Both the position numbers and the translations under genes were made by a program. A DNA stretch of 64,000 nucleotides from positions 612-64,611 of the forward strand of contig CAVZZS010000010.1 of assembly GCA_963779925.1 (NCBI GenBank). The letters run 5' to 3'. The first letter of the stretch is position 1. Each line of letters starts with the position of its first letter. Under the pieces are notes generated by a model. The model was not told the DNA's origin. It saw nothing but the letters and a program-made list of their open reading frames with translations, and ran no database searches. Below are positions 3,959-43,880 of this stretch, one piece after another. The DNA comes from an uncultured Nanoarchaeota archaeon. GTDB lineage: Archaea > Nanobdellota > Nanobdellia > Pacearchaeales > GW2011-AR1.

Positions 3959-5383
3959 CTACTTGCCTTTCTTTTTTCTGACTCTTTTTCTCTTTGCTAG
4001 AATAATAGATATTACTATGATAGCAATAGCTAAAATTGAAAATGCAACTATGATCAGGATTTTGTTTATATTGACTAAATTGCTATTCTGCTCAGCAAGA
4101 TTGTTTTGACTAGAATGATAGTTGTTTATCATAAAGGGTTCAGACAAGTCAAAAGAAATCTGTCCCAGGCTGTCAGTTGCAACAACTTCTACTATATAGT
4201 TTCCATCAGGAACAGAAGAGGAATCCCAAGAATAAGACAGGCTCTGTGAATTATTATTTGTAATTGTCTTATAAAAAGACCCGTCGGGATTCAGCAAAGA
4301 AATATTATAATATTGAATATTATATCCATTAGGTGAAATAGATTGGACATAGCCGATTGTAATAACTCCTGAATAAGTGTTATTAGTAGGAAAGTAAACA
4401 TGTGGGACGCTTGGAGAGATTCCCCCTAATTGAATTAAATCTGATCCGACTGAAGAGCAGCTTTGATTTCCTAGCATATCGCTCGCACAGGCGTAATAAT
4501 AGAATGTGTCTGTTCCAGAGTACTGGTGAAGATGGGCATCAAATGTATAAATCTGATTAGTCCATCCGGCCCCGTTGTTTCTTGATGTTTGCGCTGCAGT
4601 GGTTCTTGTTTCATTATTGATATAATAAATATACCAAAGTCCGGGGCCAATGCCTTTTCTAAGTAGAAAATAAGAAGTAGGAGTGACTTTTACCGTTCCA
4701 ATCATTCCCGTTGCAGGATTTATCGTTAATCCGACAAATTGATATTGGTTATTCATTTCTGAATCTGAAAAATTTTGCGTGGAGTTTAATGTTCCGAATT
4801 GGTAGCAATTTCGATTTGTGTCCGTCCTTCCGGAAACATAAGATGAATTGCAGTAAAATTCATACAATGGAGAGGCTCCAACAGATGAATTAGCCATGAA
4901 CATGAAGATATTATAGTCCTTTAAGCTTGAAACGCTAAGGAATTCCATCTTCACAGCGCTGTTATTTGTCAAAGTAACAAATGAGTGAGGGGTGTTTTCA
5001 AAAATGCTTTCATCCAAATTTGCCGTCGTGGGATAAACATCTCCATGATCAAGAACCGCTGAGTATAATGAATTGTTATTTGTCATGGTTTCATTGAAAA
5101 ATCCGGTCTCTGCTGTTGCATTTACATAATTAGATGCATCGCTGGAAGTCGAGTTAGTCTTGTAGAATAAAGTTACCGAAGAAGCATTTAACCCTGCTAA
5201 ATCGGTTATGGAATAGGCAATGTTTAGGTTTTGCGTAAATAAATTTAAAGTGTTTATATCTGCAGGAATTTTATTTGCAGAAGAAAACTGCGGAGGTTCA
5301 GCTAGAACCAGTATGCTGAAAAAGGTAATTAGAAATATTGACAACAATAAATTTTTACTGCTAAAAAAACTCTTTTTAATCAT
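3959..5383 (-). CDS. exported surface protein with many N-glycosylation sequons and a C-terminal TM anchor
   Basis: N-terminal hydrophobic signal. More than 20 NxS/T sequons. Ig-like C-terminal region (PDGNYIVEVVATDSLG). TM segment plus KRKRVRKKKGK tail. Confidence 0.7.
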   Translation of the reverse strand: MIKKSFFSSKNLLLSIFLITFFSILVLAEPPQFSSANKIPADINTLNLFTQNLNIAYSITDLAGLNASSVTLFYKTNSTSSDASNYVNATAETGFFNETMTNNNSLYSAVLDHGDVYPTTANLDESIFENTPHSFVTLTNNSAVKMEFLSVSSLKDYNIFMFMANSSVGASPLYEFYCNSSYVSGRTDTNRNCYQFGTLNSTQNFSDSEMNNQYQFVGLTINPATGMIGTVKVTPTSYFLLRKGIGPGLWYIYYINNETRTTAAQTSRNNGAGWTNQIYTFDAHLHQYSGTDTFYYYACASDMLGNQSCSSVGSDLIQLGGISPSVPHVYFPTNNTYSGVITIGYVQSISPNGYNIQYYNISLLNPDGSFYKTITNNNSQSLSYSWDSSSVPDGNYIVEVVATDSLGQISFDLSEPFMINNYHSSQNNLAEQNSNLVNINKILIIVAFSILAIAIIVISIILAKRKRVRKKKGK

Positions 5384-5444
5384 GCATCACAAAATCTCTT
5401 TTTATTATACATACTCGGTTTTAACATTTTTAAATGTTTTTTTT

Positions 5445-5918
5445 TCAAATTACTAATGCTTTGATTATCTTGATTTCCTGAAGAGGCCTGTCCTGGGCAT
5501 TCGTCTGTGTTTTTCCTATTTTTTCAACAACATCCATTCCTTCAATTACCCTGCCGAAAACCGGGTGCTTTCCATCAAGAAAATTGTTATTGGCTAAGTT
5601 TATGAAGAATTGGCTTCCCCCAGTATCGGGACCTGCATTTGCCATTGATATTGTTCCGCGCTTGTTTTCATCAAGTTTTGTCTCTGTAAACTCATCTCTT
5701 ATTTTATAACCCGGGCCGCCCATGCCTGTCCCGGTCGGATCTCCGCCCTGGATCATGAATCCGTCTATGATCCTGTGAAAAATCACCCCGTTATAGAATC
5801 CGGCTCTGACTAGCTTTTCAAAATTCCCGGAGGTTATAGGCATCTCTTTGTAGAGTTCTATAACTACGTCTCCCTGACTTGTTTCTAATTTAATCCTAGT
5901 ATCTTGATTTTCTGCCAT
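5445..5918 (-). CDS. ppiB: cyclophilin-type peptidyl-prolyl cis-trans isomerase
   Basis: FHRIIDGFMIQGGDPTGTGMGGPGY and SMANAGPDTGGSQFFI are signature cyclophilin blocks. Confidence 0.95.
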   Translation of the reverse strand: MAENQDTRIKLETSQGDVVIELYKEMPITSGNFEKLVRAGFYNGVIFHRIIDGFMIQGGDPTGTGMGGPGYKIRDEFTETKLDENKRGTISMANAGPDTGGSQFFINLANNNFLDGKHPVFGRVIEGMDVVEKIGKTQTNAQDRPLQEIKIIKALVI

Positions 5919-5946
5919 TTTAACAAAAAATAAGAGAAAAAATTAA

Positions 5947-6114
5947 TTAATATCTTCTTGGAGCTTTTTTAGCGTAACATTCTTTGCAATAAATTGGCTT
6001 GCCGGCTGTAGGTTTGAAAGGTACTTCGCAGTCTTTCTTGCATTCAGAGCAAACAGCTTTATGCATTTCTCTTGGTCCACTAAATCCACCCTGTCTTGAA
6101 TCATTAAATCCCAT
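5947..6114 (-). CDS. small zinc-ribbon protein with a CxxC-x17-CxxC domain
   Basis: My own translation in a frame not listed in the ORF track: MGFNDSRQGGFSGPREMHKAVCSECKKDCEVPFKPTAGKPIYCKECYAKKAPRRY. GGAGG lies 6 nt upstream of the ATG. Spacing between the Cys pairs is exactly 17 residues. Confidence 0.75.
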   Translation of the reverse strand: MGFNDSRQGGFSGPREMHKAVCSECKKDCEVPFKPTAGKPIYCKECYAKKAPRRY

Positions 6115-6210
6115 TGTTTTCCTCCATATCTATTTAATAACAATCTAGAACTTGTCTAGTTGATTAGTAAAGAACAATATTTTGAATATATAAACGTATG
6201 CTAATAGAAT

Positions 6211-6954
6211 TTATTTTGTCGCATATCCGCCAAGAATTGCAATATCATATGTGCCTAATGGAACCGGGGTTCCGCCCCCGCCTACTGCAGCGGATTCAGA
6301 AGAATAAAATCTCCAAGAGCCTCTAGCTTGAACAAAGAAATTATCCAGGAATTTTAATGTAACTGCTGCTCCCGCTTGAAAATCAGAACCGGCTGAAATA
6401 GGCAAATCAGCATTGCTGTTTCCAGAACCAGTCCATATGGTATCGCCTGCAAAGACTTCCAAATCTAATGGTCCTATTCTTGGAAGATGGTATGTTAAAT
6501 CTGCTGTAAAAAAATATTCTGGATTGTCTGCGGAAACTCCGGGATCTCCTTGAGTGTTGCCCGAGTATGTTTCATAAAAAGGCTGGTAAGCCTTGACATA
6601 ATTTGGTGATTCAGTCATAGCCCATGAAAATAAAACATCAGCTCCAAATCCGCTATCTCTATTTATGAATTCTGCATATATTTGAGGCATAGTGTCCAAT
6701 AAAGGCGTGTTACCAGGATCTGTTGTAGTAGCTCCCCAATCACTTGATGCAGGGGGGTTTCCAGCAACGCTGCCGGTTTCATAGCCTATACCCGCCCCGA
6801 ATCTGAATTCTATATTGGGTGCCGGACGAACATAATCTGGAAAGGTTTCTTTAGCCTGTTCAACCCAATCTTCTTGGGCAATCGCAGGAATTGCAACAGC
6901 AGCCGCTAATGTTCCTGCAACAATCAGAGGCGCTATTCTTCTTAATAAACCCAT
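6211..6954 (-). CDS. secreted protein with outer-membrane-like beta-barrel character
   Basis: Ala/Leu-rich Sec signal ending AIAQE. Repeated amphipathic alternating strands: IEFRFGAGIGYE, ADVLFSWAM, FFTADLTYHL, LDLEVFAG, AAVTLKF, FFVQARGSWRFY, YDIAILGGYAT. Visibly GC-richer. Confidence 0.55.
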   Translation of the reverse strand: MGLLRRIAPLIVAGTLAAAVAIPAIAQEDWVEQAKETFPDYVRPAPNIEFRFGAGIGYETGSVAGNPPASSDWGATTTDPGNTPLLDTMPQIYAEFINRDSGFGADVLFSWAMTESPNYVKAYQPFYETYSGNTQGDPGVSADNPEYFFTADLTYHLPRIGPLDLEVFAGDTIWTGSGNSNADLPISAGSDFQAGAAVTLKFLDNFFVQARGSWRFYSSESAAVGGGGTPVPLGTYDIAILGGYATK

Positions 6955-7014
6955 AAAAAATTTAATCTGCTCTTATTTATAAGGTTTTATATACAAAAGA
7001 AAAATATATTGTAC

Positions 7015-7872
7015 ATGGCAAATACATTCGGAAAAGCTAAACCTGAAAGGAACAAAAGTAACAGAATCAACAAGCATAGGCAGTCAATACCGACCATAAT
7101 AAACAATCTTATTTATCAGGCAGACATAATCCTGGAAGTTCTTGATGCCCGGTTCATTGAAAGGACAAGGCACCCGACTATTGAAAAAAAGATAAGATCT
7201 ATGCACAAAAAGATAATCTATGTCCTGAATAAGGCAGATTTGGTTGATACTCATGAAGTAGAAGAGAAACTGGAATTGGGAAAGCTGAATCCGCATGTGT
7301 TTTTCTCTTCTAAGGAGAAAAGAGGCGTTGTCGTTCTGAGGAATCTGATAAAAAAAGAGGCTAAGAAGATAGACAAGGATGCTGTTAATGTCGGCATCGT
7401 CGGATATCCCAACACTGGCAAGAGCTCTCTGATAAATTCTCTGATCTTGAAGGCTTCTGCAAGAGTCTCCCCAATTGCAGGCTATACTAAAACAATACAG
7501 AAGATAAGGCTGGCCAGAGGTATTTATCTCATTGACGCTCCGGGTATACTCCACCCTGAAGAAGGTATGACTATAAACAGAGAGAACACTGTAAGGCATT
7601 CGCAGATCGGGGCGATTGACTGGAACAAGATAAGAGACCCCGAGCTTGTAGTCGACAGCCTGATGAAAGAATATCCCAACTCTATTGAGAAGCATTACAA
7701 TCTTGAAGTAAAAAATGATTCCGAAGTTCTGATTGAAGAGCTTGGAAGAAAATTGAATTATTTGAAAAAAGGAAACCAGGTCGATGAGATCAGGACTGCA
7801 AAACAGATTCTGAGGGATTGGCAGGAAGGGAAAATAAAAATAGATAATTTCAACATTTCACAGAATTTATAA
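7015..7872 (+). CDS. circularly permuted ribosome-biogenesis GTPase (YlqF/RbgA-Nug family)
   Basis: G4 NKADL precedes G1 GYPNTGKSSLIN and G3 DAPG, which is the permuted order. The ATG at 7015 is preferred over the TTG at 7009. Confidence 0.8.
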   Translation: MANTFGKAKPERNKSNRINKHRQSIPTIINNLIYQADIILEVLDARFIERTRHPTIEKKIRSMHKKIIYVLNKADLVDTHEVEEKLELGKLNPHVFFSSKEKRGVVVLRNLIKKEAKKIDKDAVNVGIVGYPNTGKSSLINSLILKASARVSPIAGYTKTIQKIRLARGIYLIDAPGILHPEEGMTINRENTVRHSQIGAIDWNKIRDPELVVDSLMKEYPNSIEKHYNLEVKNDSEVLIEELGRKLNYLKKGNQVDEIRTAKQILRDWQEGKIKIDNFNISQNL

Positions 7873-8251: not shown

Positions 8252-8703
8252 GTTATCCCCCTTATCCTAAGAAAAAACGAAGCGGAATGTGGATTATAGT
8301 TTTATTGGTTGTAGTAGGGGTTATTATTTATGCAAACAGCAAGGGGATTATAAATCTCGGCTCTCTGAATTTTGGAAATTTCAGCATGTCAGGAAACCAG
8401 AGTGGCACAGCATGCATACAGAAAGTTAATTCATGCGGCAGCATCATAAACCAGAAATATGGATCTAATGTGAATGTGTTAAACAGCACAATAGCGCAAA
8501 ATGCCAACGATGCAAATCAGTTTTTGGCAACATGGAAAAGTTCTTCAGAATCGGCAAGTATTGCAACTTACAATGTTTCTTCATATCCCATCACTTTGGT
8601 AGCAACGAGATTTGACAATACAGATGGGACAAAAACGCCTTATGTATTTATCTGCAAATCTGATGGAAATCTGGAAGAGAAAACAAATTCAGGTCTCTGC
8701 TGA
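8248..8703 (+). CDS. single-pass membrane protein with an extracellular domain
   Basis: Short basic N-terminus, one TM (WIIVLLVVVGVIIYA), and a Cys-containing ectodomain of about 110 aa. Confidence 0.5.
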   Translation: MSYPPYPKKKRSGMWIIVLLVVVGVIIYANSKGIINLGSLNFGNFSMSGNQSGTACIQKVNSCGSIINQKYGSNVNVLNSTIAQNANDANQFLATWKSSSESASIATYNVSSYPITLVATRFDNTDGTKTPYVFICKSDGNLEEKTNSGLC

Positions 8704-9537
8704 TTTTTTTGAGGTTAAGCCATTCGCAATTTTTATCTTACTCTCTATTTTGAATAATTTTTGCCGTATCCTTTCGCCTGTAATTCCGTATTCCTCGCCA
8801 AGGCTTTCATTAGTTCGGGGATAAGGAAAGCCGTTCAATCCATATTTTTTGTATAATATTTCTTTTTCTTCTGGCGTTAAATTCGCTTTTTTCAGGCTCT
8901 TTTGCAAAAATTGTTGATCATGTTCACTGTTCTCGCGTGTTTCCTGCTGCTGTTGAGGTCGATTATCAACTGCACGGGCTCCCCGTTCTTCTTCTCCATC
9001 ATCATAAGTAGAATCTATAGAGATAGGATCTGAAAATTGAAGAAGTTCTTCTACACTATCAACAGGCAAAGAAGAAATTTCTGCCAATTGCTCTATTGTT
9101 GGTTTTCTGCCATGTCTCTTCACATAATTTTCAGATTCTGAATTTAATCTGTCTGATTTTATTGCTTGATTAACCGGCAATTTAATAGTTCTGCTCTTAG
9201 ATATTATCGCATTTAGAATGGATTGTCTAATCCACCAGATTGCATATGCTCTAAAGTTTCGATTCTCTTTATTGGGATCATAGCGATCTATGCATTTCAT
9301 CAGTCCAATTCGGCCTTCCTGAATCAGATCTCCAAATTCCAGACTTCGCCTGTGTTTAAGATATCCCGTATAGTGTCCGGCAATAGCAGTTACTAAAGGG
9401 AGGTGAGTTTCAATTAATTTATCTTTAAGAGATTTATCTCTTGTATCTAGATATTCTCTGAATAATTCGTCAAAGTCCCAGCTATTATTCCACATATCCT
9501 TGCCATCTATATATCTTAAAAAAATATCTTTTGCCAT
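8689..9537 (-). CDS. bacterial-type sigma-70 family RNA polymerase sigma factor
   Basis: Region 2: DLIQEGRIGLMKCIDRYDP and FRAYAIWWIRQSILNAI. Region 3.0: SRTIKLPVNQ. Region 4: LTPEEKEILYKKYGL and SLGEEYGITGERIRQ. Confidence 0.85.
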   Translation of the reverse strand: MAKDIFLRYIDGKDMWNNSWDFDELFREYLDTRDKSLKDKLIETHLPLVTAIAGHYTGYLKHRRSLEFGDLIQEGRIGLMKCIDRYDPNKENRNFRAYAIWWIRQSILNAIISKSRTIKLPVNQAIKSDRLNSESENYVKRHGRKPTIEQLAEISSLPVDSVEELLQFSDPISIDSTYDDGEEERGARAVDNRPQQQQETRENSEHDQQFLQKSLKKANLTPEEKEILYKKYGLNGFPYPRTNESLGEEYGITGERIRQKLFKIESKIKIANGLTSKKSAET

Positions 9538-9584: not shown

Positions 9585-10886
9585 TTACTTTTGCTTAACC
9601 GGACTCTTTATCTCCTTTTGCCCGCCCATATAAGGCTGAAGAACGGTTGGAATTTTTATGCTTCCGTCAGCCATCTGATTATTTTCCATCACCGCAATCA
9701 GCGCTCTTGGAGAGGCAAGAACAGTATTATTGAGAGTATGGGCAAAATATCTCTGGCCTTTTCCTTCTATTTTAATATTGAGCCTCCTTGCCTGAGCATC
9801 GGTGAGATTGCTGCAGCTCCCTACTTCGAAATATTTCTTCTGCCTTGGGGACCATGCTTCAACATCGCAGCTCTTTGCCTTTAAGTCCGCCAGATCACCC
9901 GAGCATATTTCCAAAACTCTTAATGGGACATTTAATTCTTTAAAGACTTCAACGGTATAATTTTTCATCTTGTCATATAATTTGTAAGAATCTTCAGGCT
10001 CGCAGATTACAATCATTTCCTGCTTCTCAAACTGATGCAGCCTGTAAAAGCCTTTTTCTTCAATGCCATGGGAGCCGACTTCCTTTCTGAAGCAAGGAGA
10101 ATAGCTTGTCAGTTTAAGGGGAAGCTCTTTTGAGAGAAGTGTTTTGTCAATGAATCTTCCTATCATGGAATGCTCTGATGTTCCGATAAGATAGAGATCT
10201 TCGCCTTCAATTTTGTACATCATGTTGTCCATTTCCTTGAAGCTCATGACTCCTTCAACGACTTTTCTTCTTATCATGAATGGAGGTATTACATAGGTGA
10301 ATCCCTGCTTTATCATGTAATCTCTTGCAAATGCCAGCATTGATGAATGGAGGCGTGCAAGATCTCCCAGCAGGTAATAGAACCCGTTTCCGGATGTTTC
10401 CCTTGCAGAGTCAAAATCAACGCCGTTTAATTTCTCCGCGAGTTCAGCATGATTCAATATTTCATATTTTGGAACAGGAGGATTTCCTTTTGGAATCCTT
10501 TCTATTTCAACATTTTCAGAATCGTCTTTTCCTATTGGCACGGATTCATGGATTATGTTAGGAATCTGCTTCAATAATTGGTCTCTCTTTTCTTCAAGGG
10601 TCTTTGTTTTTTTCTCGCTGTTCGAGATTTTATCCGGAAGGTCTTTTGCTTCTTTGATCAGTTCCTTTGCTTTTTTTTCATTCTTGGCCTTTTTTGCCTG
10701 GTTGATATTTTCAGAAATCTCATTCCTCTGCTTTCTCAGCTTGTCGCCATTCTGCTTTTCCTTCCTCCACTTGTTGTCTAGTTCAAGAACTTGGTCGACA
10801 ACAGGCAGCTTGTCATGCTGGAACTTTTTCTTGATATTTGCCTTGACAATCTCCGGATTTTCCCTCAGAAGCTTGATGTCAATCAT
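9585..10886 (-). CDS. serS: seryl-tRNA synthetase
   Basis: N-terminal coiled-coil arm and class II core (FYRLHQFEKQEM, TSEHSMIGRF, GSCSNLTDAQARRL). Confidence 0.95.
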   Translation of the reverse strand: MIDIKLLRENPEIVKANIKKKFQHDKLPVVDQVLELDNKWRKEKQNGDKLRKQRNEISENINQAKKAKNEKKAKELIKEAKDLPDKISNSEKKTKTLEEKRDQLLKQIPNIIHESVPIGKDDSENVEIERIPKGNPPVPKYEILNHAELAEKLNGVDFDSARETSGNGFYYLLGDLARLHSSMLAFARDYMIKQGFTYVIPPFMIRRKVVEGVMSFKEMDNMMYKIEGEDLYLIGTSEHSMIGRFIDKTLLSKELPLKLTSYSPCFRKEVGSHGIEEKGFYRLHQFEKQEMIVICEPEDSYKLYDKMKNYTVEVFKELNVPLRVLEICSGDLADLKAKSCDVEAWSPRQKKYFEVGSCSNLTDAQARRLNIKIEGKGQRYFAHTLNNTVLASPRALIAVMENNQMADGSIKIPTVLQPYMGGQKEIKSPVKQK

Positions 10887-11024
10887 GGAAAATTTAATTG
10901 AATATTCTATTTAAATTTAATGAAATGGTTAAATTCTATTAGTTTTTTGTAATTATATCCAATCTATTTTCAAGAAAGATTTAATTCTAATAAAACTTAA
11001 AAAGCCAGTAATATTACGGCTTAT

Positions 11025-11786
11025 ATGAACCTTAAGGGGTTTTTTAAAATATTTCTAATGATTTCTCCATTAATTTTTTTAATTTTATACTTTTCCCTTA
11101 TTAATATTCATTCTTCCCAAAATAGCGATAATTCTTCCAAAAATGAATCACAAAATTTCACACTTGATAATTCTTATTTGACGCCTAATATAACTCAACC
11201 AAGTATTCAACAAACTCCAATCAAGTCTGCTGATCCAAGAGATAGCATGGATATTTGGTATTGGACATTACCAATTCATTATACTTTTTCAAAAGATAGC
11301 TCCTGTAGTGATGAAACAAAAATGCGAGTTCAAGATGCGATGAATATAATAAACAAGAATACAGATAATTATGTTTCTTTTCAAGAAGATTCTGATTTGA
11401 CTAATACAAGTGGGGATTATAAAGGAATTTATTTTTCTTGCATAGACCAATATAATGATACTCCAAGATCAGAAACTGAAGGAGATGCAAGTTTCTATTA
11501 TTACATTGGAACTAGAGAAATCTCTTCTGGTTCTATAGAATTATACAAACCAAATAGGGCTCAATACGAGTACTGCATGGGTTATCCTGATGTGGAAATA
11601 CATGAAATATTACATACAATGGGATTAGATCATATAACAGGTAGAGCAAGTATTATGAATTCAATTGCTCAAGAGGGATGTTTTAATTTAGACAAAGAGA
11701 TTTCAGATTGTTTAGAGTATATATATTCAAAAGGGCAACAAAATTATTCTTGCCAAGGAATTCCATTTCAGAGTGAAAGTCAATAA
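11025..11786 (+). CDS. secreted metzincin-type zinc metalloprotease
   Basis: Signal/TM N-terminus. HEILHTMGLDH matches HExxHxxGxxH, followed by SIMN (Met-turn). Confidence 0.8.
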   Translation: MNLKGFFKIFLMISPLIFLILYFSLINIHSSQNSDNSSKNESQNFTLDNSYLTPNITQPSIQQTPIKSADPRDSMDIWYWTLPIHYTFSKDSSCSDETKMRVQDAMNIINKNTDNYVSFQEDSDLTNTSGDYKGIYFSCIDQYNDTPRSETEGDASFYYYIGTREISSGSIELYKPNRAQYEYCMGYPDVEIHEILHTMGLDHITGRASIMNSIAQEGCFNLDKEISDCLEYIYSKGQQNYSCQGIPFQSESQ

Positions 11787-11799
11787 AAAGATAAATTTA

Positions 11800-12063
11800 T
11801 TATTCTGATTTCATCGAATTAATCAGAATTACCGCGCCAAGAGCGACAACAAATAATGCTACTATCCCCGTAATTATCCCACCAGACTGCAAGGTTCCTA
11901 TGACCCCCGCAGTGATTGAACCGGTATTGCAGGTAATAGTCTGATTCAAGCTGCAAGCCTTTATTCCGCCATCTGAAGAGCCTTTTACAACGCTGAAAAT
12001 GCCTAATATGCCTGCAAGTATAAGTGCCAATGACATTGCAATCATAAAACCTTTATTCTTCAT
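11800..12063 (-). CDS. small membrane protein carrying the shared C-terminal anchor module
   Basis: 87 aa with an N-terminal TM. The tail ITAGVIGTLQSGGIITGIVALFVVALGAVIL aligns with the tails of the two upstream genes. Confidence 0.5.
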   Translation of the reverse strand: MKNKGFMIAMSLALILAGILGIFSVVKGSSDGGIKACSLNQTITCNTGSITAGVIGTLQSGGIITGIVALFVVALGAVILINSMKSE

Positions 12064-12097
12064 TAATAGAAATATGGGAAGATTTATTTAAATCTTT

Positions 12098-12685
12098 TTA
12101 TTTTTCTTCAACTACAGGAAAATTCTTCTTGTATTTCTTTCTTGCTCTGACGATTATAATAGCAATCACAAGCACAACTGCGAATGCAACTATTCCGATT
12201 ATTCCGCCCGCAGAACTCAATGGGCTGGTAACTCCGCCTGTCAAGGGCGCTGAACTTGTAAATGGATTGCTTGTATTTGACAAAATAGTATCATTTGTCA
12301 TAACATTAGGAGAAAATAGGCTACCATTGGAAGAATTCTGGATTTCATTTGCAGGGAGAACATTCACAGTCCTGTTTGCTTTTGCAATATTTCCTGAAGA
12401 GTCTGTAGAAGTGTATAAGACATAATAAGTTCCAAGAGCGCTAGTATCCACAGCATTTACAGTCAGCATATGGACAGTTATATTACCATCACGATTATCT
12501 ATAGCATTTGCACCAGCATCAATATACTGGCTTCCCAAAGCTATGTTGACAATAGAATTACCATTTAAAGTTATTACTGGGGGAATAGTGTCAGGAGAAT
12601 ATGAACTCGCATTAATTCCTGCGGAAATCATAATGATAGATAATAAGAAAACAGATGATATAAACAATGCAGCTCTTTTATTCAT
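12098..12685 (-). CDS. surface protein with an Ig-like (DUF5011-type) domain and C-terminal anchor
   Basis: PPVITLNGNSIVNIALGSQYIDAGANAIDNRDGNIT ... YYVLYTSTDSSGN matches the DUF5011 pattern. Tail APLTGG-x11-TM-RARKKYKK. Confidence 0.7.
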   Translation of the reverse strand: MNKRAALFISSVFLLSIIMISAGINASSYSPDTIPPVITLNGNSIVNIALGSQYIDAGANAIDNRDGNITVHMLTVNAVDTSALGTYYVLYTSTDSSGNIAKANRTVNVLPANEIQNSSNGSLFSPNVMTNDTILSNTSNPFTSSAPLTGGVTSPLSSAGGIIGIVAFAVVLVIAIIIVRARKKYKKNFPVVEEK

Positions 12686-12738
12686 AAAAAGATTATAGAA
12701 AATTGATATTTAAAGTTATTCGTTCTTAATTGTATATT

Positions 12739-14606
12739 TTAATTCAAATTCTTATTTTTGTTCTTCTTTCTTACTCTAATAATTATTATTGCCAAAACCA
12801 ATATAACAAATGCTATAATTCCGATGATTCCTGTTGGTGATGTTAAAGCACCAATTGCTGCACCTGTTATCGGAGCAGTTGTAGTCGTTCCATTCACAGG
12901 AGTCTGAGTAGATGTAGTGTTTGCTATAGGAGAAGATATGTTAGTTATTGTTGTGTTTGTGTTAGTTGTATTAGCATTACTTGTAGGAGGGACATAACTT
13001 GCTCCTCCGCCTCCACCGCCTGCACTTGTACTTGTTCCGGAAATAGTTGAAGCAGGAACAGTTGGAAGATAAGTCATGAATTCAGTAAAATGCATTGTAC
13101 TAATTATCGTATCTGTTCCATTATCATAATAACAAATTCCAGATGTTTTAGCGCAAGTTTCCAAATCTGTTGTTGTATTTGCAGATATTTGTGTAAAAGT
13201 TAATCCCCCATCATTTGAATATGCTATATGCTTTCCTGTTACTCCTGGAATGGTTATATTTACCGGTTGACTGAAATTTAAATTATTTCCACCAACATCA
13301 ATAATTTCACCAAGTCCATTAACAAATCCATTAGGATAATAATCTCCAGGAACATTTGAAGTAGCTGCTGGTGCTCCAACATTTAATACTTGTGGAGCAT
13401 TTAATGTTCCATCCCATGTAGAATTTCCTGTAATATTTGTTCCAGAAGGAATTACAACTTGAATATTATTTAAATCATTTGAGGTTAAAATTATATTTGC
13501 TGGAACTGTAACATTTAATCTTCCTGAGTCATTTCCAGTCATAAAAGATGTCAAATTCAAGTAGGAAGTATCAGTGTCTGGAACAATATTTGCTTGAGAA
13601 AGGATAGTATATACTGCTTGTACTGATTCACTATTTACTTCTGAAACTTCATTCGTACCATCATTACCAGGAGCTGAATCATACCAGCCACCAATTATAC
13701 CCTTATAATTTTGATTACTTGTAAGCCATAATTGTCCATTTATTGCATCTTTAAAATCTCCAGCATCCATTAGTGCCATTATAGCATAAGCTGTATCTTG
13801 AACATATCCATTAGCATCACTCCAAGAACCATTCATCTGTTGAGATACAATTAAAGCATCTTTTGCGCTTGAATTTCCTGCTTCAACCAAACCAACTAAT
13901 CCAATAATGTATGTAGGATCAGATACATTTGTAATAATTAAAGGAGAGTTAGTATTAATAGTATTTATCAAGCTATTTGCCCAAGGAGAATTACCTGCCA
14001 TTTTAGCATCATCTATATAATTATACAAATCCCAGACAATTAATCCTTCATTGCTTGTTCCTCTATAAACTTTATTTGCTGTGAGCAAATCTGAACCAGA
14101 ACTATATGCATTCATAACTTTGTTCATCAAGAGGTTTGCTTCGGTTGTATAAGAATTAATCCTGCTAATATTCCCTAAATCATAAAGAAATTTTACATTA
14201 ACAGAATTAATGTTATTGCTAGTGGGATCACTATTGGGGTCAACCATTATCGTTGGAAGTTTATTAGTGTACATATTAAGCAGATAGTTTCCAGTCTTTT
14301 CTGCAGCCGTAAGATATGATATATTCCCAGTTATTTTATATGAATTTAACAAACTTTCAGCAGTTATTCCAGCTATATTCATATAAGTTGTTGAAGTTGG
14401 ACTAGTTGCATTTGTAATAGTCCAATCCCATGAACCATTTGCATTTTGCAAATTGACTAATCTATTAGAAGCGTTTATAATTGCAGTTTTTGCATCGGTA
14501 TATTGGCTAGTATTCAGATTTGTTTGTGCACTAACAACTCCTAGAAAGCCGATAAGAATTAAAGCAAATAGAGAGAGAGAGTTAAAAGATTAAATCTTTT
14601 ATTCAT
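12739..14606 (-). CDS. large surface protein with alpha/alpha-toroid (prenyltransferase/terpene-cyclase-like) repeats; its ATG is out of frame because of a (CT)6 tract
   Basis: The track ORF 12739..14451 starts at TTG without a signal peptide. The same frame stays open up to the ATG at 14606. Removing one CT unit gives MNKRFNLLTLSLFALILIGFLGVVSAQT. Repeats of NGSW..D type. Tail APITGA-x11-TM-RVRKKNKNK. Confidence 0.65.
14570..14581 (-). repeat. (CT)6 dinucleotide tract ((AG)6 on the plus strand) inside signal-peptide codons
   Basis: Plus strand reads agagagagagag at 14570..14581, starting 25 nt downstream of the ATG at 14606 on the minus strand. Confidence 0.9.
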
Positions 14607-15339: not shown

Positions 15340-15347
15340 TTTTTAAA
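15340..15347 (+). promoter_or_regulatory. candidate TATA box (TTTTTAAA) for rps10
   Basis: Centred about 26 nt upstream of the ATG at 15369. The same spacing is seen at thyA, infB and serS, which is consistent with leaderless transcripts. Confidence 0.3.
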
Positions 15348-15368
15348 CTATTTCCTGAATATACTTTT

Positions 15369-15677
15369 ATGGTAAAAGCAAGAATCAAGCTCAACAGCAT
15401 AGATATAGAGATGCTAAATGAAATCTGCAATTCTATTAAAGATATTGCCGACAAATCAGGAGTCACAATCAGCGGCCCTGTTCCTCTGCCTACAAAAAAA
15501 CTGAAAATAACCACAAGAAAATCCCCATGTGGAAATGGGACAGCAACATTTGATAATTTTGAAATGAGAATTCACAAAAGATTGATTGATCTGCCTGCAA
15601 ATGAAAAAGTTTTGCACCACATCATGAGAATGAGAATTCCGAAGAACGTCAACATAAAAATAGAGATGAAGGAATAA
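15369..15677 (+). CDS. rps10: 30S ribosomal protein uS10
   Basis: KARIKLNSIDIEMLNEICNSI ... SGPVPLPTKKLKITTRKSPCG ... FEMRIHKRLIDL. The internal ATG at 15369 is preferred over the track start. Confidence 0.9.
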   Translation: MVKARIKLNSIDIEMLNEICNSIKDIADKSGVTISGPVPLPTKKLKITTRKSPCGNGTATFDNFEMRIHKRLIDLPANEKVLHHIMRMRIPKNVNIKIEMKE

Positions 15678-15728
15678 TTTGGATTTTCCGTCCATAAGTC
15701 TTATAAATCATTCATAGGATGAAGTGTT

Positions 15729-16343
15729 ATGGAAAAAAATAATTCTACCAAAGAAATAGAAGAAAAAATAATTGAAGTCGGGCTTAGAATAGCCAGAAGG
15801 GGAGAAGGCGCTTTGATCGTTCTCGGAAAAGCAAATTTCAAGCCTCTTGTCGAGCAGAAAGTTCCTCCGTTCAAAATCGTTGATAATCTGAAATTATTGG
15901 AATCCCTTGCATTGATTGATGGCGCTGTTATAATCAATCATGAAGGCATAATGGAGAATTATGGGGTCATGATTGAATCAAGAAAGACAATGCAGGGTTA
16001 TGGGACACGCCATAGTGCAGGATTGAATGCTTCTCTGATCAAAGGCACAACTGCTTTTGTAATCTCAGAAGAAGATAAAAAAATAAGAGTCTTCAAAGAG
16101 GGGAAGGTTGTGCTTCAGATAGATGCCCTTGAAAAAGGCATAGAAAAGAGGACCCCTGAAATCGGCGGGATTCTTGCAAGTATAGGTGCAGGGACAATCG
16201 GGACTCTCGGAGTTGGAATGCTCATTCCGAATATAGGATTGACTTTGATTCCAGGCGTGATAATATTCGGTTCGACATATTTTCTGCTCAAGAAATTAAA
16301 TGATGCAAACCAGAACAAGAAATTATGGTCCTGGTTCTTTTAA
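15729..16343 (+). CDS. DisA_N/DAC-domain protein (putative diadenylate cyclase) with a C-terminal membrane region
   Basis: GEGALIVLGK, LIDGAVIIN, GTRHSAGLNAS and AFVISEEDKKIRVFKEGK follow the DAC pattern (GALIV, DGA, RHR, SEE). The C-terminus has two hydrophobic segments. Confidence 0.6.
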   Translation: MEKNNSTKEIEEKIIEVGLRIARRGEGALIVLGKANFKPLVEQKVPPFKIVDNLKLLESLALIDGAVIINHEGIMENYGVMIESRKTMQGYGTRHSAGLNASLIKGTTAFVISEEDKKIRVFKEGKVVLQIDALEKGIEKRTPEIGGILASIGAGTIGTLGVGMLIPNIGLTLIPGVIIFGSTYFLLKKLNDANQNKKLWSWFF

Positions 16344-16367
16344 TAATAATACTCTGCAATAGATTTC

Positions 16368-16375
16368 TTTAAAAA
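16368..16375 (+). promoter_or_regulatory. candidate TATA box (TTTAAAAA) for thyA-tmk
   Basis: Centred about 28 nt upstream of the ATG at 16399. Confidence 0.3.
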
Positions 16376-16398
16376 CGAAATAGATTAATTCTCATTTA

Positions 16399-17193
16399 AT
16401 GGAACAGTATCTTGATCTCGCAAAATATATTCTAGATCATGGAAAGGAAAAGAATGATAGAACAGGCACAGGGACAAAAAGTATTTTTGGTTATCAGATG
16501 CGGTTTAATCTAAGAGAAAACTTTCCGCTTTTAACTACAAAAAAGATTAACACCAAAGCTGTTCTTGAAGAATTATTATGGTTTTTAAGAGGAGAAACAA
16601 ATGTCCGGTCTCTTCAGTCAAAGGGAATTCATATATGGGATGAATGGGCGGATGAAAGCGGAAATTTGGGTCCAGTCTATGGAAAGCAATGGAGAAGTTG
16701 GCCAACTCCAGATGGAAAGTATATAGATCAGATAACAGAAACTATTGATAGAATAAAAAAAGATCCTGATTCAAGAAGGCATGTAATCTGCTCTTGGAAT
16801 GTAGCAGATATAGACAGAATGGCTTTGGCCCCATGTCATTGTTTATTCCAATTTTATGTTGCAGATGGGGAATTATCTTGTCAATTATACCAAAGAAGCG
16901 GCGATGTTTTTTTGGGGGTTCCTTTCAATATTGCGAGCTATTCAGCACTGACTCTTATGGCTGCGCAGGTAACAGGTTTAAAGCCGAGAGATTTTGTGCA
17001 TACATTAGGCGATGCACATCTTTATAAAAATCATCTTGAACAAATAGAACTGCAACTTACACGAACTCCAAGACCTTTGCCGCAATTGAAGTTAAATCCG
17101 GACGTAAAAGATATTTTGAAATTCAGATTTGAAGATTTTGAGTTTAAAGGATATGATCCATATCCATTTATTAAGGCAGATATAGCTGTTTAA
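16399..17193 (+). CDS. thyA: thymidylate synthase (ThyA type)
   Basis: Full-length match to ThyA blocks: [45 protein letters not shown]. Confidence 0.97.
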
Positions 17194-20526: not shown

Positions 20527-21165
20527 ATGACAACTAGGAGATTCGGACTTTTGGCTTTTCTTGGACTATTAGCTCTTTCTTCAACTTCTGAAGCGCAGGG
20601 AATTTATCTCAAAACCTCAGGCGGAGTATCTTTTGGTTCCGATAAGATTATAGAGAAGAATTATGGTACAATGCCCCTATTCAACATAGGAATTGGCATA
20701 GATGCAAAAAATGGATGGGCTGGCGAATTCGATTTTTTCCAAACCTCGAAACAAGGGCCGGTTATCAATTATTCAAGATTTAATGCTATTCCAAGAATGA
20801 TATTGCCATTTCCTGAAGATATAAGCAAAAGTTCAGAAATAGACGCATATAAAGTAGAATTGCGAGTGTCAAAATCTTTTGGTAAAAAAGGGGAACTTCA
20901 GTCATATGTGGGAATGGATTTATCCTATGAAATGGCTACCCAATCTGTAGCTGAAACTGTAAACGGAACGGCATCATCTTATTCATATGACATGAGCCTG
21001 TATGGTGCAGGAGTATTTGCAGGAGTAGTCATTCCAATTTCAAAGAATACTTCATTCTTTCTTGAAGGTCTTGCTGATGTTATACCTGTGCCTAATTCTC
21101 AAGTAAAAGATGCGACAGATTTTGGCGGAAATTCTGTTATTGTGGGAGTGGAATATTCTTTCTAA
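20527..21165 (+). CDS. outer-membrane-protein-like beta-barrel protein (OmpA/OmpW-size)
   Basis: Signal MTTRRFGLLAFLGLLALSSTSEAQG. First strand GIYLKTSGGVSFG. Alternating amphipathic strands throughout. C-terminal strand VIVGVEYSF ends in Phe. Confidence 0.65.
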   Translation: MTTRRFGLLAFLGLLALSSTSEAQGIYLKTSGGVSFGSDKIIEKNYGTMPLFNIGIGIDAKNGWAGEFDFFQTSKQGPVINYSRFNAIPRMILPFPEDISKSSEIDAYKVELRVSKSFGKKGELQSYVGMDLSYEMATQSVAETVNGTASSYSYDMSLYGAGVFAGVVIPISKNTSFFLEGLADVIPVPNSQVKDATDFGGNSVIVGVEYSF

Positions 21166-28485: not shown

Positions 28486-29295
28486 ATGAAAGTCTTTTCT
28501 CATTCCAGATTAAGCACTTTTGAGCAGTGCAATCTAAAATACAAATTCAGGTACATAGACAATATTATCCCTGAAATTGAAAAAACGATTGAAGCGCATC
28601 TTGGGAGCATCGTGCACCAGACTTTGGAATGGCTTTATTCGGAAGTGAAGGAAAAAAGGATTCCAACAATTGATGATATGATTGTTTATTTTTCAAAAAG
28701 TTGGATGGAAGAAAATAAAGAAACTTTGATGCAGAATAATAATGATGAGCAGAAGTATTTCAATAAAGGAGTAAAATATTTGCTCGATTATTACAATAGA
28801 TACAAGCCTTTTGAGGACAATACAATTTATGTTGAAAAGGAAATTTCAATAGATTTGGATGAAAAAGGCGAATTCAAAATAAGGGGTTTCATTGATCGGC
28901 TTGCATATAATCTTGCTACAAAAGAATATGAAATTCATGATTACAAAACTTCCAATACAATGCCGCAGGGAGATAAAATCGAAAAGGACAGGCAGCTGGC
29001 GCTTTATTCCATCGCGATAAAAGAGATGTTTGGGCAAGATAAAGAGGTAAGATTAATCTGGCATTATCTTTTCTTCAACAAAAGGATAGAATCGAAGAGG
29101 ACTGATGAACAGCTTCTCCAATTAAAAAAAGATACACTTGAGCTAATAAGGATAATAGAATCAACGACAGAATTTTCTCCTAACAAATCGCATTTATGCA
29201 ATTGGTGCGCATACAAGCCTATCTGTCCTGCATGGAATAATGTAAAAGAATACATGCCAAAATTTGAGAAGCAGAAAAAGCTTGGGGATTTTTAA
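28486..29295 (+). CDS. PD-(D/E)xK nuclease of the RecB/Cas4 type with a four-Cys cluster
   Basis: N-terminal Cys (EQCNLKYKF), FIDRL, EIHDYKT, QLALY, and C-terminal CNWCAYKPIC. Confidence 0.75.
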   Translation: MKVFSHSRLSTFEQCNLKYKFRYIDNIIPEIEKTIEAHLGSIVHQTLEWLYSEVKEKRIPTIDDMIVYFSKSWMEENKETLMQNNNDEQKYFNKGVKYLLDYYNRYKPFEDNTIYVEKEISIDLDEKGEFKIRGFIDRLAYNLATKEYEIHDYKTSNTMPQGDKIEKDRQLALYSIAIKEMFGQDKEVRLIWHYLFFNKRIESKRTDEQLLQLKKDTLELIRIIESTTEFSPNKSHLCNWCAYKPICPAWNNVKEYMPKFEKQKKLGDF

Positions 29296-32520: not shown

Positions 32521-34464
<1,944 letters not shown>

Positions 34465-43793: not shown

Positions 43794-43880
43794 ATTTATT
43801 TTTTATTTTTTTATTTTTTAGATTTCAAATAGAATAAGGAGGCTCATAATCCTTAAAAATCTCCTTTTCTTCTTTTTTTG

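Follow-up and report, generated by a model that had tools for sequence, protein, structure and literature searches.

A predicted bacterial-type eight-stranded beta-barrel family in a Woesearchaeota archaeon and its possible role at the interface with a bacterial partner

The gene at 6211..6954 (minus strand) of the 64,000-nucleotide stretch of DNA analysed here (the window) encodes a predicted eight-stranded beta-barrel of the outer membrane protein (OMP) type, which appears to have entered an archaeal lineage by inter-domain transfer. This structural and evolutionary part of the explanation is held with high confidence. The site of action was assigned to the contact zone between the archaeon and a diderm bacterial partner, which is a tentative placement, and the explanation as a whole, that is, a transferred OMP-type barrel that is exported and acts at such an interface, is regarded as somewhat probable. 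OMP-type transmembrane barrels are regarded as a distinguishing mark of diderm bacteria and of the organelles derived from them, and no use of them by Archaea is known.

The coding sequence of this barrel (family 1) is complete, with an ATG start, 247 amino acids and a stop, and the original prediction of a 247-aa protein at 6211-6954 was exact in its coordinates and named no strand. A chance open reading frame was ruled out by homologs with E values down to 1.8e-61 and by the retention of invariant residues. By inspection, the N-terminus carries the bacterial-style Ala/Leu signal peptide that had been proposed (residues 1-26, 6877..6954, minus strand; MGLLRRIAPLIVAGTLAAAVAIPAIA), in which a basic n-region (MGLLRR) is followed by a 20-residue h-region rich in Ala, Leu and Val and by an AxA motif; cleavage would fall between AIA and QE, and the AlphaFold2 (AF2) model places a helix at residues 3-20. 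The same Sec-type layout was recognised by inspection in P0008, the ortholog from the archaeal locus L004, whose signal peptide resembles that of the window copy (MDLLKKLARPFVPLVAAGALALGVAGIADA, followed by Q). The signal peptide is followed by a short N-terminal linker (residues 27-47, 6814..6876, minus strand; AF2 helix 28-37) and by the barrel domain (residues 48-246, 6217..6813, minus strand), which was delimited by DSSP of the AF2 model and the family alignment.

The fold was evaluated with an AF2 model built from an alignment of 5 sequences; the model is of medium confidence (mean pLDDT 73, pTM 0.66, strand blocks at pLDDT 90-95), and the fold call is that of this one model. At least eight amphipathic strands in the layout of small OMPs had been anticipated, and exactly 8 were assigned (48-64, 77-98, 103-112, 146-156, 163-176, 189-202, 206-219 and 235-246), with lengths of 10-22 residues. 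The strands were connected by turns T1-T3 (99-102, 157-162 and 203-205; 4, 6 and 3 residues) at the end where the termini lie, alternating with the longer loops L1-L4 (65-76, 113-145, which contains a helix, 177-188 and 220-234; 12, 33, 12 and 15 residues) on the opposite side. When the model was compared with the PDB by Foldseek, the best 13 matches were OMPs of 8 to 10 strands with a probability of 1.0, the best being OmpA-TM, Ail, NspA and OmpX (E 1e-7 to 1e-5). The target-normalised TM score to this class was 0.55-0.67, with the highest values at 0.67-0.69. The alignments spanned approximately 200-220 columns of closed 8-stranded barrels, and on this basis we infer that the family-1 barrel is closed. 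Among the BFVD models, phage-encoded OmpW, Opacity and OMP_b-brl proteins were matched (E 2e-7 to 1e-3). Membrane barrels made up most of the best 50 matches in the PDB and nearly all of those in BFVD, and the exceptions were low-probability matches to acetoacetate-decarboxylase-type enzymes. No lipocalin, avidin or FABP was present among the best 50 matches in either database. A soluble beta-sandwich or jelly-roll, which the original prediction had named as the contrary outcome, was ruled out by the OMP-like 8-strand model and the Foldseek matches.

The two faces of the strands differed in their hydrophobic and aromatic content (72% vs 28% in the dyad pattern), similarly in archaeal and bacterial members (0.69-0.73 vs 0.28-0.39); this alternation was read from sequence and strand positions and alone fits either face outward. 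The residues on the apolar faces are Y-F-A-L-Y, Y-I-I-G-Y and F-A-V-F-W, with Tyr, Phe or Trp at the ends, and the opposite face carries conserved E49, E59, D106, D152, H156, D164, Q193, Q209 and R215 together with Gly. If this polar, Gly-rich face points inward, as in OmpA and OmpX, the barrel core would be filled and therefore have no open channel. The earlier suggestion of a secreted pore-former is thus not favoured for a single-chain 8-stranded barrel whose core may be filled. An oligomeric pore-forming toxin of the alpha-haemolysin or aerolysin type was also rejected, as all 8 strands come from a single chain and no cap or rim domain is present; no beta-barrel pore-forming toxin occurred among the best structural matches.

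The closest known class is that of the small bacterial OMPs (OmpA TM domain, OmpX, Ail/Lom, NspA and Opa; clan MBB; PF01389, PF06316, PF13505 and PF02462), with which family 1 shares the signal peptide, eight antiparallel strands, short turns on the termini side, long opposite loops, an apolar face bounded by aromatics, a polar Gly-rich other face and a consensus C-terminal aromatic-x-Phe. Unlike these proteins, family 1 had no sequence or profile match to OMP families, it occurs in an archaeal host, and the loops are conserved in its core sub-family, where they are among the most conserved parts. The alignment of the family contains 69 invariant columns. Substrates of the BAM machine typically end in an aromatic residue, usually Phe. 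The C-terminal consensus of the family is ...LAGF-x-F; the terminal residue is F in P0003, P0004, P0005 and P0012 and W in P0010, whereas the two archaeal copies lack a terminal aromatic (...LGGYATK in the window and ...GGFSVK in the L004 ortholog). The fold is also shared with phage small OMPs (lambda Lom, and the metagenomic phage OmpW, Opacity and OMP_b-brl proteins found in BFVD); in contrast to these, family 1 had no match in the PHROG scan and no phage genes or integration scars were seen beside the window gene.

By its predicted fold, family 1 is new and very small, its members being single-chain barrels of 8 strands and of the small-OMP type. A word-indexed search returned only 4 relatives (E 1.8e-61 to 3.9e-40), and an exhaustive profile search gave 14 matches among 1.84 billion representatives. 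The OMP models of Pfam, by which the barrel had been expected to be checked, did not match the window protein, and neither the Pfam nor the NCBIfam scan gave any match even at E 0.1-1. The family profile found nothing real among PDB sequences (a spurious uL15 at E 0.58). A pattern scan with the family alignment gave no confirmed locus on genome contigs and none on metagenome contigs (archaeal pair A4). When approximately 1.1 Mb of Woesearchaeota and Pacearchaeota loci, reached via SerRS and GTPase, was searched with the family-1 HMM, only the window and L004/L005 were recovered.

The relatives of the archaeal copies lie on the bacterial side. P0002 is on a contig with a GC content of 0.67, and the ArgG of this contig is 87-90% identical to that of Rectinemataceae (Spirochaetota) MAGs. 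Further members are on short bacterial-looking contigs, richer in GC (0.41-0.65) than the host, and P0010 adjoins a phage tail-fibre gene, a neighbourhood that points to family 1 travelling on mobile elements. Because these relatives are spirochaetal, bacterial-looking or phage-adjacent, the archaeal copies appear to derive from inter-domain transfer. The gene is of bacterial type, and its nearest relatives are bacterial or phage-borne; the neighbour-joining tree of the family was poorly supported (6-50%) and did not group the two archaeal copies, so that it is compatible with either one acquisition or two at the same site.

The genome of the window is archaeal by gene content, as was proposed from the neighbouring genes. 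The window carries aIF5B, aIF2-gamma, S6e and Kae1 at the level of equivalog matches, and Woesearchaeota MAGs encode the closest relatives of its SerRS and GTPase. In both the window and L004, a separate and independent assembly (GC 0.40), the order at the site is GTPase, barrel, Zn-ribbon and cyclophilin. The gene order of L004 matched that of the window throughout SerRS (91% identity), sigma-70, GTPase (88%), barrel (42-46%), Zn-ribbon (89%) and cyclophilin (83%). The intergenic spacers around the barrel gene are short, and a conserved Zn-ribbon promoter lies directly downstream. The gene was missing at this site in 4 of the 6 close archaeal relatives; L169, L223, L224 and L225 had only a gap of approximately 86-130 bp, and L004 clustered with the barrel-less L169 and L224 (95% identity, bootstrap 80). 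Since it is absent from these relatives, the family-1 gene is dispensable, and its distribution and divergence mark it as a fast-evolving, strain-variable accessory surface gene.

The architecture of the L004 ortholog differed from that of the window copy. Where the latter has residues 27-47, P0008 has a domain of approximately 130 aa and a Pro/Gln-rich linker. L004 encodes two unrelated barrels with homologous N-terminal domains (34% identity, E 4e-16), and this domain was also found as a stand-alone ORF; it gave no Pfam match, to SLH or otherwise. OmpM of Negativicutes and SlpA of Deinococcus-Thermus are tethers between outer membrane and wall, in which a periplasmic domain at the N-terminus precedes the barrel at the C-terminus. 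The putative likeness to them is one of architecture: P0008 and the 389-aa PF13505 protein of L004 each have a signal peptide, a globular domain of approximately 110-130 aa, a Pro/Gln-rich linker and a barrel. Unlike these tethers, the L004 N-terminal domain has no SLH match, and in the window copy a linker of 20 residues is all that stands between signal peptide and barrel.

The original prediction also described the gene as GC-richer and, as one of two options, as a recent bacterial acquisition. The first description holds for the overall GC content (0.435 vs 0.365 for the window) and fails as a sign of foreign codon usage. The excess was confined to codon positions 1 and 2 (0.53 and 0.51; z=+3.0) because the protein is rich in Ala, Gly and Pro, whereas GC3 was 0.27, compared with a window mean of 0.33 +/- 0.06 (z=-1.0). 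The third positions thus appear fully host-adapted, and a host-like GC3 indicates a transfer old enough for full amelioration. At four-fold codons of conserved sites, the window gene and its spirochaete homolog had the same third base in 15 of 61 cases, close to the chance level of approximately 25%; synonymous sites between them are saturated. The bacterial type of the gene stands and its recency does not, since an un-ameliorated recent transfer is ruled out by the host-like GC3 and the saturated synonymous sites. Moreover, the window protein retains 70 of the 79 positions (89%) that are invariant in four bacterial homologs. Taken by its sequence, this is a genuine gene of a Woesearchaeota (DPANN) archaeon, on which purifying selection acts. 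Repeats flanking it included no notable target-site duplication or terminal inverted repeats, and hence no mobile-element scar was recognised.

The window was said to hold two further genes of this kind, and both are real and barrel-like. The first (20527..21165, plus strand) encodes 212 aa with a signal peptide, ends in ...VGVEYSF and had a sub-threshold Pfam match to Opacity (E 0.011). A homolog search returned only the gene itself, and its sole relative is L004 15345..16514 (31% identical), which scores above the Pfam cut-offs for OMP_b-brl PF13505 (33.0 bits vs 28.7) and Opacity (22.6 vs 21). Kinship of this family 2 with family 1 was rejected, as hhalign showed no profile relation. The second gene (40039..41685, minus strand) encodes 548 aa; in its AF2 model (pLDDT 74), a signal peptide is followed by the N-terminal barrel at residues ~39-355, then by a disordered linker and, at the C-terminus, by an alpha/beta domain in which Cys446 and His479 are invariant. 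The predicted barrel is many-stranded, with about 20 DSSP strand segments, and its best Foldseek matches were all large outer membrane barrels (MOMP, LptD, OmpG, OccK, TonB-dependent receptors and porins; E 7e-5 to 1e-3, probability 1.0, with TM scores of only 0.2-0.45). The protein has 15 homologs (49-62% identity). Its gene adjoins a YGR210-type GTPase and occupies the same position in three other archaeal gene contexts; synteny of this large porin-like barrel thus extends to relatives. All three barrel genes of the window are flanked by archaeal genes. A screen for a signal peptide plus C-terminal motif in the first ~0.58 Mb of Woesearchaeota and Pacearchaeota loci found only the gene-2 family and a false positive, Kae1; this screen was crude and missed the family-1 target, and hence is unreliable as a census.

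Export of the family-1 protein would run through the Sec system of the archaeon, with the signal peptide then removed; retention of the peptide as an N-terminal anchor is less likely. The barrel would enter a lipid bilayer via its apolar belt, without forming a pore, and would serve at the cell surface as an anchor in the membrane or as a contact protein, inserted into, or mimicking, the outer membrane of a diderm bacterial partner. The interface with such a partner is favoured because of the donor lineage, the two further barrels, the domain-linker-barrel design in L004 and the bacterial-envelope-directed genes reported in Woesearchaeota. Woesearchaeota with murein-transglycosylase giants and sigma-70 have been described, and DPANN archaea have been proposed to live with bacterial hosts (PMC8204110; bioRxiv 10.1101/2025.11.11.687807). 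Small closed barrels at a membrane interface between predator and prey are represented by PopA and by unrelated 8-strand lipid-trapping OMPs (Parr et al. 2025, PMC12228718). PopA-type homo-oligomers, from tetramer to hexamer, enclose a lipid chamber (PMC12228718). Family 1, likewise a small barrel, is known here as a single-chain model and has no established sequence relation to these proteins. The literature search found no report of OMP-type barrels in Woesearchaeota, and the nearest case was a possible distant relative of PopA in Altiarchaeales (PMC12228718).

A broader reading, which is possible and was given a rather low probability, is that this Woesearchaeota clade keeps a toolkit of at least three unrelated families of bacterial-type barrels, among them a conserved porin-sized barrel fused to a Cys/His domain, with which it acts on, or within, an outer membrane of the bacterial kind. 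These barrels may be planted in the outer membrane of a diderm host, with the donor signal pointing to the Rectinemataceae spirochaetes of peat and sediment, or the archaea may themselves have a second membrane. Treponema outer membranes may lack LPS and hence be permissive for insertion, a property extended to Rectinema by assumption. If the toolkit reading is true, OMP-type barrels function in Archaea, and the gene at 6211..6954 would determine host range or contact and so reveal the identity of the host.

Failing a bacterial partner, the barrel would be placed in a membrane of the archaeon itself. The barrel could be an anchor in the cytoplasmic membrane, inserted spontaneously from outside after Sec export and with no bacterial partner, which was considered unlikely. 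In its favour, small 8-stranded OMPs (OmpA, OmpX and PagP) fold into bilayers in vitro without BAM, the archaeal copies keep the apolar belt, and the L004 fusions resemble a surface domain with an anchor. In addition, a small barrel with the polar, Gly-rich face in its interior would have no channel and could enter an energised membrane without necessarily being toxic. However, loops L1-L4 (up to 33 residues, partly conserved and with a helix) would have to reach the cytoplasmic side, archaeal ether-isoprenoid membranes are not known to contain beta-barrels, and the upkeep of three barrel families, one of them porin-sized, would be left unexplained. Should the family-1 protein reside in a membrane of the archaeon, archaeal envelopes would have their first beta-barrel membrane anchor.

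It is improbable that the clade is diderm, with all three barrel families resident in an outer membrane of its own and assembled by unrecognised machinery. Three sequence-unrelated OMP-type barrels within 64 kb, a large barrel conserved as a core gene, in synteny, across at least 4 independent archaeal gene contexts, and the L004 domain-linker-barrel layout, which recalls the OmpM and SlpA tethers, are consistent with such a membrane. Nevertheless, the scanned ORFs (64 kb plus fragments) yielded no recognisable gene for Omp85/BamA/POTRA, Lpt, Lol, a periplasmic chaperone or any other factor of outer membrane biogenesis, family 1 is dispensable, and searches of other Woesearchaeota and Pacearchaeota loci gave no OMP-like ORFs (family HMM, ~1.1 Mb; crude screen, the first ~0.58 Mb). 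A double membrane in Woesearchaeota was likewise not found reported in the papers searched.

The patchy distribution, the tiny size of the family and the missing terminal Phe of the window copy would fit a neutral passenger or a relic in decay, left by transfer from a bacterium or phage and functionless in the archaeon. This was judged very improbable, as the ORF is intact and keeps 89% of the bacterial-invariant residues in spite of saturated synonymous sites and a host-like GC3. A TATA-like box also lies at the modal position, and the ortholog was kept in a second genome, where it gained a lineage-specific N-terminal domain. Slightly less credit was given to a soluble, secreted lipocalin- or avidin-like barrel of 8 strands that binds lipids or small ligands, for example in scavenging host lipids. 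The alternating pattern alone would allow it, DPANN archaea to our knowledge generally lack lipid synthesis and could use a lipid carrier, and the conserved loops PGNTPLL, YVxAYQPF and DLPISAG suggest a putative binding site. Against it stand the prevalence of membrane barrels among the best 50 Foldseek matches, the strand lengths with aromatics bounding the apolar face, the conserved Glu, Asp, Arg, His and Gly of the other face (compare the OmpA and OmpX interior), and the OMP-type GF-x-F motif at the end of bacterial members. Finally, a bacterial fragment mis-joined into the archaeal contig by assembly or binning, which had been named in advance as fatal to the claim and could draw on the bacterial-style signal peptide, the amino-acid composition and a GC content at codon positions 1 and 2 that is 3 SD above the mean, is effectively refuted, because an ortholog occupies the same site and gene order in the independent assembly L004/L005, GC3 is host-like, the spacers are short with the conserved Zn-ribbon promoter immediately 3' of the gene, and three separate barrel genes each lie between archaeal genes.

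With such barrel genes resident in an archaeal lineage, the idea that some DPANN archaea may live on bacteria becomes testable, in that the barrel families and the donor lineage (Spirochaetota/Rectinemataceae, phage) are candidates for host identification and for localisation. The OMP-type genes appear truly resident in the archaeal lineage, given the same site in independent assemblies and the signs of purifying selection, and the barrels appear to have been remodelled within it, as a shared N-terminal domain is carried by two different barrels. They also raise the question of how barrels are assembled without the known BAM machine.

The putative expression signals of the barrel gene resemble those of archaea. 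A divergent intergenic region of 54 bp is common to the barrel and GTPase genes. Two TATA-like boxes were located upstream of the barrel gene (6975..6992, minus strand), TTATAAAT at -28 and ATATAAAA at -38 from the ATG. The Rfam scan of 5300..7300 gave no match. No Shine-Dalgarno sequence was found upstream of the gene, and a leaderless, archaeal-type transcript is therefore probable. TATA-like matches upstream of 68 window genes had their modal bin at -30..-26 (11 of 32 matches), within which the box at -28 falls; such calls are consensus matches in AT-rich DNA and are suggestive only.

The gene at 6211..6954 on the minus strand was an intact ORF with an ATG start and 247 codons. By inspection, the N-terminus of its product (MGLLRRIAPLIVAGTLAAAVAIPAIA, followed by QE) showed the n-, h- and c-regions of a Sec signal peptide and an AxA site, in agreement with the bacterial-style signal peptide of the original prediction. 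The Pfam, NCBIfam and PHROG models gave no match to the protein, and the profile of its family (family 1) found nothing among the PDB sequences. The AlphaFold2 model, computed from a 5-member alignment of family 1, had a mean pLDDT of 73 and a pTM of 0.66; the strand blocks reached pLDDT values of 90-95, and low values were restricted to the signal peptide and the loops. Exactly eight strands were modelled. Their connections switched between short turns (three, of 4, 6 and 3 residues) and long loops (four, of 12, 33, 12 and 15 residues), a topology that is canonical for small outer-membrane proteins. In the Foldseek search against the PDB, OmpA-TM, Ail, NspA and OmpX ranked top, followed by OpcA, AlkL, Thermus TtoA, PagL and a de novo designed transmembrane barrel (E from 1e-7 to about 3e-3, probability 1.0), and the target-normalised TM values of the 8-stranded matches were 0.55-0.69. 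The proposal of at least eight amphipathic strands in a small OMP layout was thus borne out; neither a sandwich nor a jelly-roll, the folds that had been set against a barrel, nor a lipocalin or avidin occurred among these PDB matches. Among viral models, phage-encoded OmpW, Opacity and OMP_b-brl proteins were matched.

One face of the strands was 72% hydrophobic or aromatic, with Tyr/Phe/Trp at either end (e.g., Y-F-A-L-Y and Y-I-I-G-Y). The other was 28% hydrophobic and held family-invariant Glu, Asp, Arg, His and Gln residues plus Gly, resembling the interior of OmpA/OmpX. The closure and orientation of the modelled barrel were inferred from the alignments. By its predicted architecture the protein may work like OmpX, OmpA-TM and Ail, but it differed from them in sequence and belonged to no curated family; hence, its fold is known, whereas the family is new and the host unexpected. 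In the papers searched, OMP-type barrels were not reported for Woesearchaeota, and the nearest remark concerned a possible Altiarchaeales relative of PopA (PMC12228718).

The archaeal setting of the gene, for which a mis-join had been the alternative, was confirmed. The window encoded aIF5B, aIF2-gamma, ribosomal protein S6e and Kae1, whose scores reached or came close to the NCBIfam equivalog cut-offs of archaeal models, and the closest SerRS and GTPase among GTDB genomes were those of Candidatus Woesearchaeota MAGs (74% and 85% identity). The immediate neighbours of the barrel gene (cyclophilin, YlqF-like GTPase, sigma-70 and bacterial-type SerRS) are not diagnostic as host markers. An ortholog, P0008, was found on L004, a 96.8-kb contig (GC 0.40) of a related archaeon that was assembled independently in another study. 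The gene order on L004 was that of the window, namely, SerRS (91% identity), sigma-70 (45%), two small ORFs, GTPase (88%), barrel (42-46%), a small Zn-ribbon gene (89%) and cyclophilin (83%). Hence, a mis-joined bacterial fragment was excluded.

The Zn-ribbon gene (5947..6114, minus strand), unlisted and, at 55 aa, below the 60-aa ORF cut-off, lay directly downstream of the barrel gene and had a GGAGG ribosome-binding site; its product (MGFNDSRQGG...CSEC...CKEC...RRY) had two CxxC pairs and was 85-96% conserved in five relatives. The sigma-70 family gene (8689..9537, minus strand) was bacterial and complete, with Pfam regions 2, 3 and 4, and RpoD/RpoS-like; it was syntenic in relatives and only 45-51% identical, compared with 83-91% for its neighbours. 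Sigma-70 genes in Woesearchaeota are already on record (PMC8204110). SerRS (9585..10886, minus strand) was of the bacterial type, and its best matches were in Woesearchaeota (67-74%), then in Clostridia/Bacillota (61-64%); these sequence matches suggest that an essential gene was replaced long ago by a bacterial version.

The barrel gene had been described as GC-richer, which held for the overall value (0.435 vs 0.365 in the window) but not for the synonymous positions. The excess lay wholly at codon positions 1 and 2 (GC 0.53 and 0.51; z=+3.0 against 68 window genes), whereas GC3 was 0.27, less than 1 SD from the window mean of 0.33. The appearance therefore came from the amino-acid composition of an Ala/Gly/Pro-rich (A+G+P 0.32) and Lys/Asn/Ile-poor (K+N+I 0.11) protein, and foreign codon usage was ruled out as its source. 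A TATA-like box, TTATAAAT, preceded the ATG by 28 nt, the distance at which such motifs were most frequent ahead of window genes, and a Shine-Dalgarno sequence was absent upstream of the gene. This arrangement would fit a leaderless archaeal transcript, although it is suggestive only. No repeats or mobile-element scars were found flanking the gene.

The origin of the gene was bacterial or phage, as the distribution of its family showed. The word-indexed search of 5.8 billion proteins returned four relatives (47-57% identity), and the exhaustive HMM search of 1.84 billion cluster representatives returned only 14 proteins at E<=1e-3. The member with 57% identity, P0002, was encoded on a contig with a GC of 0.67 and bacterial metabolism genes, whose ArgG was 87-90% identical to that of Rectinemataceae (Spirochaetota) MAGs; further members outside the archaeal pair were on short contigs with a GC of 0.51-0.65. 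The gene of another member, P0010, immediately followed a phage tail-fibre gene on a contig with a GC of 0.41, indicating that family 1 is also phage-borne. On this 4-kb contig (L086, 2..2884), the tail-fibre gene had PHROG tail-fibre matches and an S74-like C-terminus, and a Gly-rich protein was also encoded. The OMP-type ending ...GF-x-F (or W) was present in several members other than the two archaeal copies; the window barrel ended in ...GGYATK and P0008 in ...GGFSVK. At four-fold synonymous sites the window barrel and P0002 were identical at 15 of 61, the chance level, whereas 70 of the 79 residues invariant in four bacterial members were kept, which showed that purifying selection has acted on the protein for a long time since its transfer. 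One JGI metagenome (3300017929) yielded both L225 (Ga0187849_1041170), from a closely related archaeon that lacks the barrel gene, and L087 (Ga0187849_1122007), the presumably bacterial contig of member P0012 (GC 0.59); family-1 holders and the archaeal clade thus co-occur in at least one sample.

Within the clade, four loci of close relatives (L169, L223, L224 and L225; GTPase 83-86% identical) retained cyclophilin, Zn-ribbon and GTPase and had only about 86-130 bp at the barrel site, and the family-1 HMM found no copy in about 1.1 Mb of other Woesearchaeota/Pacearchaeota loci. In the GTPase-plus-cyclophilin tree, L004 grouped with the barrel-less L169 and L224 (95% identity; bootstrap 80), and the window was more distant (85-87%). 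Hence, the barrel is an accessory gene at a fixed site, and its distribution requires repeated loss or lateral exchange in the clade. Both archaeal barrels shared the signal peptide type, an insertion of one residue (FLDNFF / FLKDFF) and Lys as the last residue; the NJ tree of family 1 lacked the resolution to show whether or not they are sisters. Because the neighbours sigma-70 and orf8248 were equally divergent (45-52%), rapid evolution by itself is enough to account for the 42-46% identity of the barrels. The single barrel gene is accessory, fast-evolving, HGT-derived and dispensable.

The two further OMP-like genes expected in the window were recovered. The first (20527..21165, plus strand; 212 aa, ending ...VGVEYSF) had a sub-threshold Opacity match, and its only relative, at 15345..16514 of L004, passed the Pfam thresholds for OMP_b-brl and Opacity; profile comparison found no relation of its family to family 1. 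The second (40039..41685, minus strand; 548 aa) comprised an N-terminal barrel, a linker and a C-terminal alpha/beta domain, and had 15 full-length homologs (49-62% identity). Its model (pLDDT 74) had a many-stranded barrel with about 20 DSSP strand segments, and Foldseek matched exclusively large OM barrels (MOMP, LptD, OmpG, OccK and TonB-dependent receptors) at probability 1.0 but a modest TM of 0.2-0.45. The C-terminal domain, with invariant Cys446/His479, is possibly transglutaminase- or papain-like. In the window this gene adjoined a YGR210-type GTPase gene, and so did its homologs in three further archaeal contexts, one of which also had L7Ae, S28e and L24e, indicating a stable gene of the clade. 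On L004, homologous N-terminal domains of about 110-130 aa (34% identity, E 4e-16) were carried by the family-1 ortholog (10001..11068) and the PF13505-type protein (15345..16514), and the same domain formed a neighbouring stand-alone secreted ORF (16570..17052), with 34-46% identity among the three. The domain had no Pfam match and was absent from the window; its presence on two different barrels indicates that barrels recombined with a lineage-specific module inside archaea.

Taken together, the results showed a maintained, signal-bearing protein, predicted to be exported, with a single-chain eight-stranded OMP architecture in an archaeon. The original observation was confirmed, and its interpretation was partly supported. 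The structural and evolutionary statements on the gene are solid, and we hold them with high confidence. The protein would be exported by Sec and would insert and fold into a bilayer via its apolar belt; with eight strands, and provided that its polar Gly-rich face lines the interior, it would serve as an anchor or contact protein and would form no channel. Less probable locations are the membrane of the archaeon itself and a true archaeal outer membrane. The favoured, tentative hypothesis places the barrel where the archaeon meets a diderm bacterial partner, because of the donor signal, three unrelated barrel families (one porin-sized), the domain-linker-barrel design on L004, and the murein-directed giant proteins and possible bacterial hosts published for Woesearchaeota (PMC8204110; bioRxiv 10.1101/2025.11.11.687807). 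Together with its two companions, the gene documents that an archaeal lineage uses bacterial-type barrels, and the three barrels provide a concrete lead to the hosts of Woesearchaeota.

Elsewhere in the window, gyrA (29292..31839, minus strand) was split by a frameshift near 31400 that reflects either an error in sequencing or a genuine disruption. The ORF at 31315..31839 encoded an acidic N-terminal extension and the GyrA N-terminus to ...GSIDGDP before going out of frame, and GyrA resumed with ...AAMRYTEA in the ORF at 29292..31403; gyrB (32521..34419) was intact. Several genes at 11025..14451, 35451..36557 and 43878..45188 encoded secreted or membrane proteins that look bacterial or eukaryotic, including a matrixin-like peptidase M10, a bacterial surface Ig-like domain protein, a triple HYR-domain protein and a NOX/ferric-reductase-type flavocytochrome.
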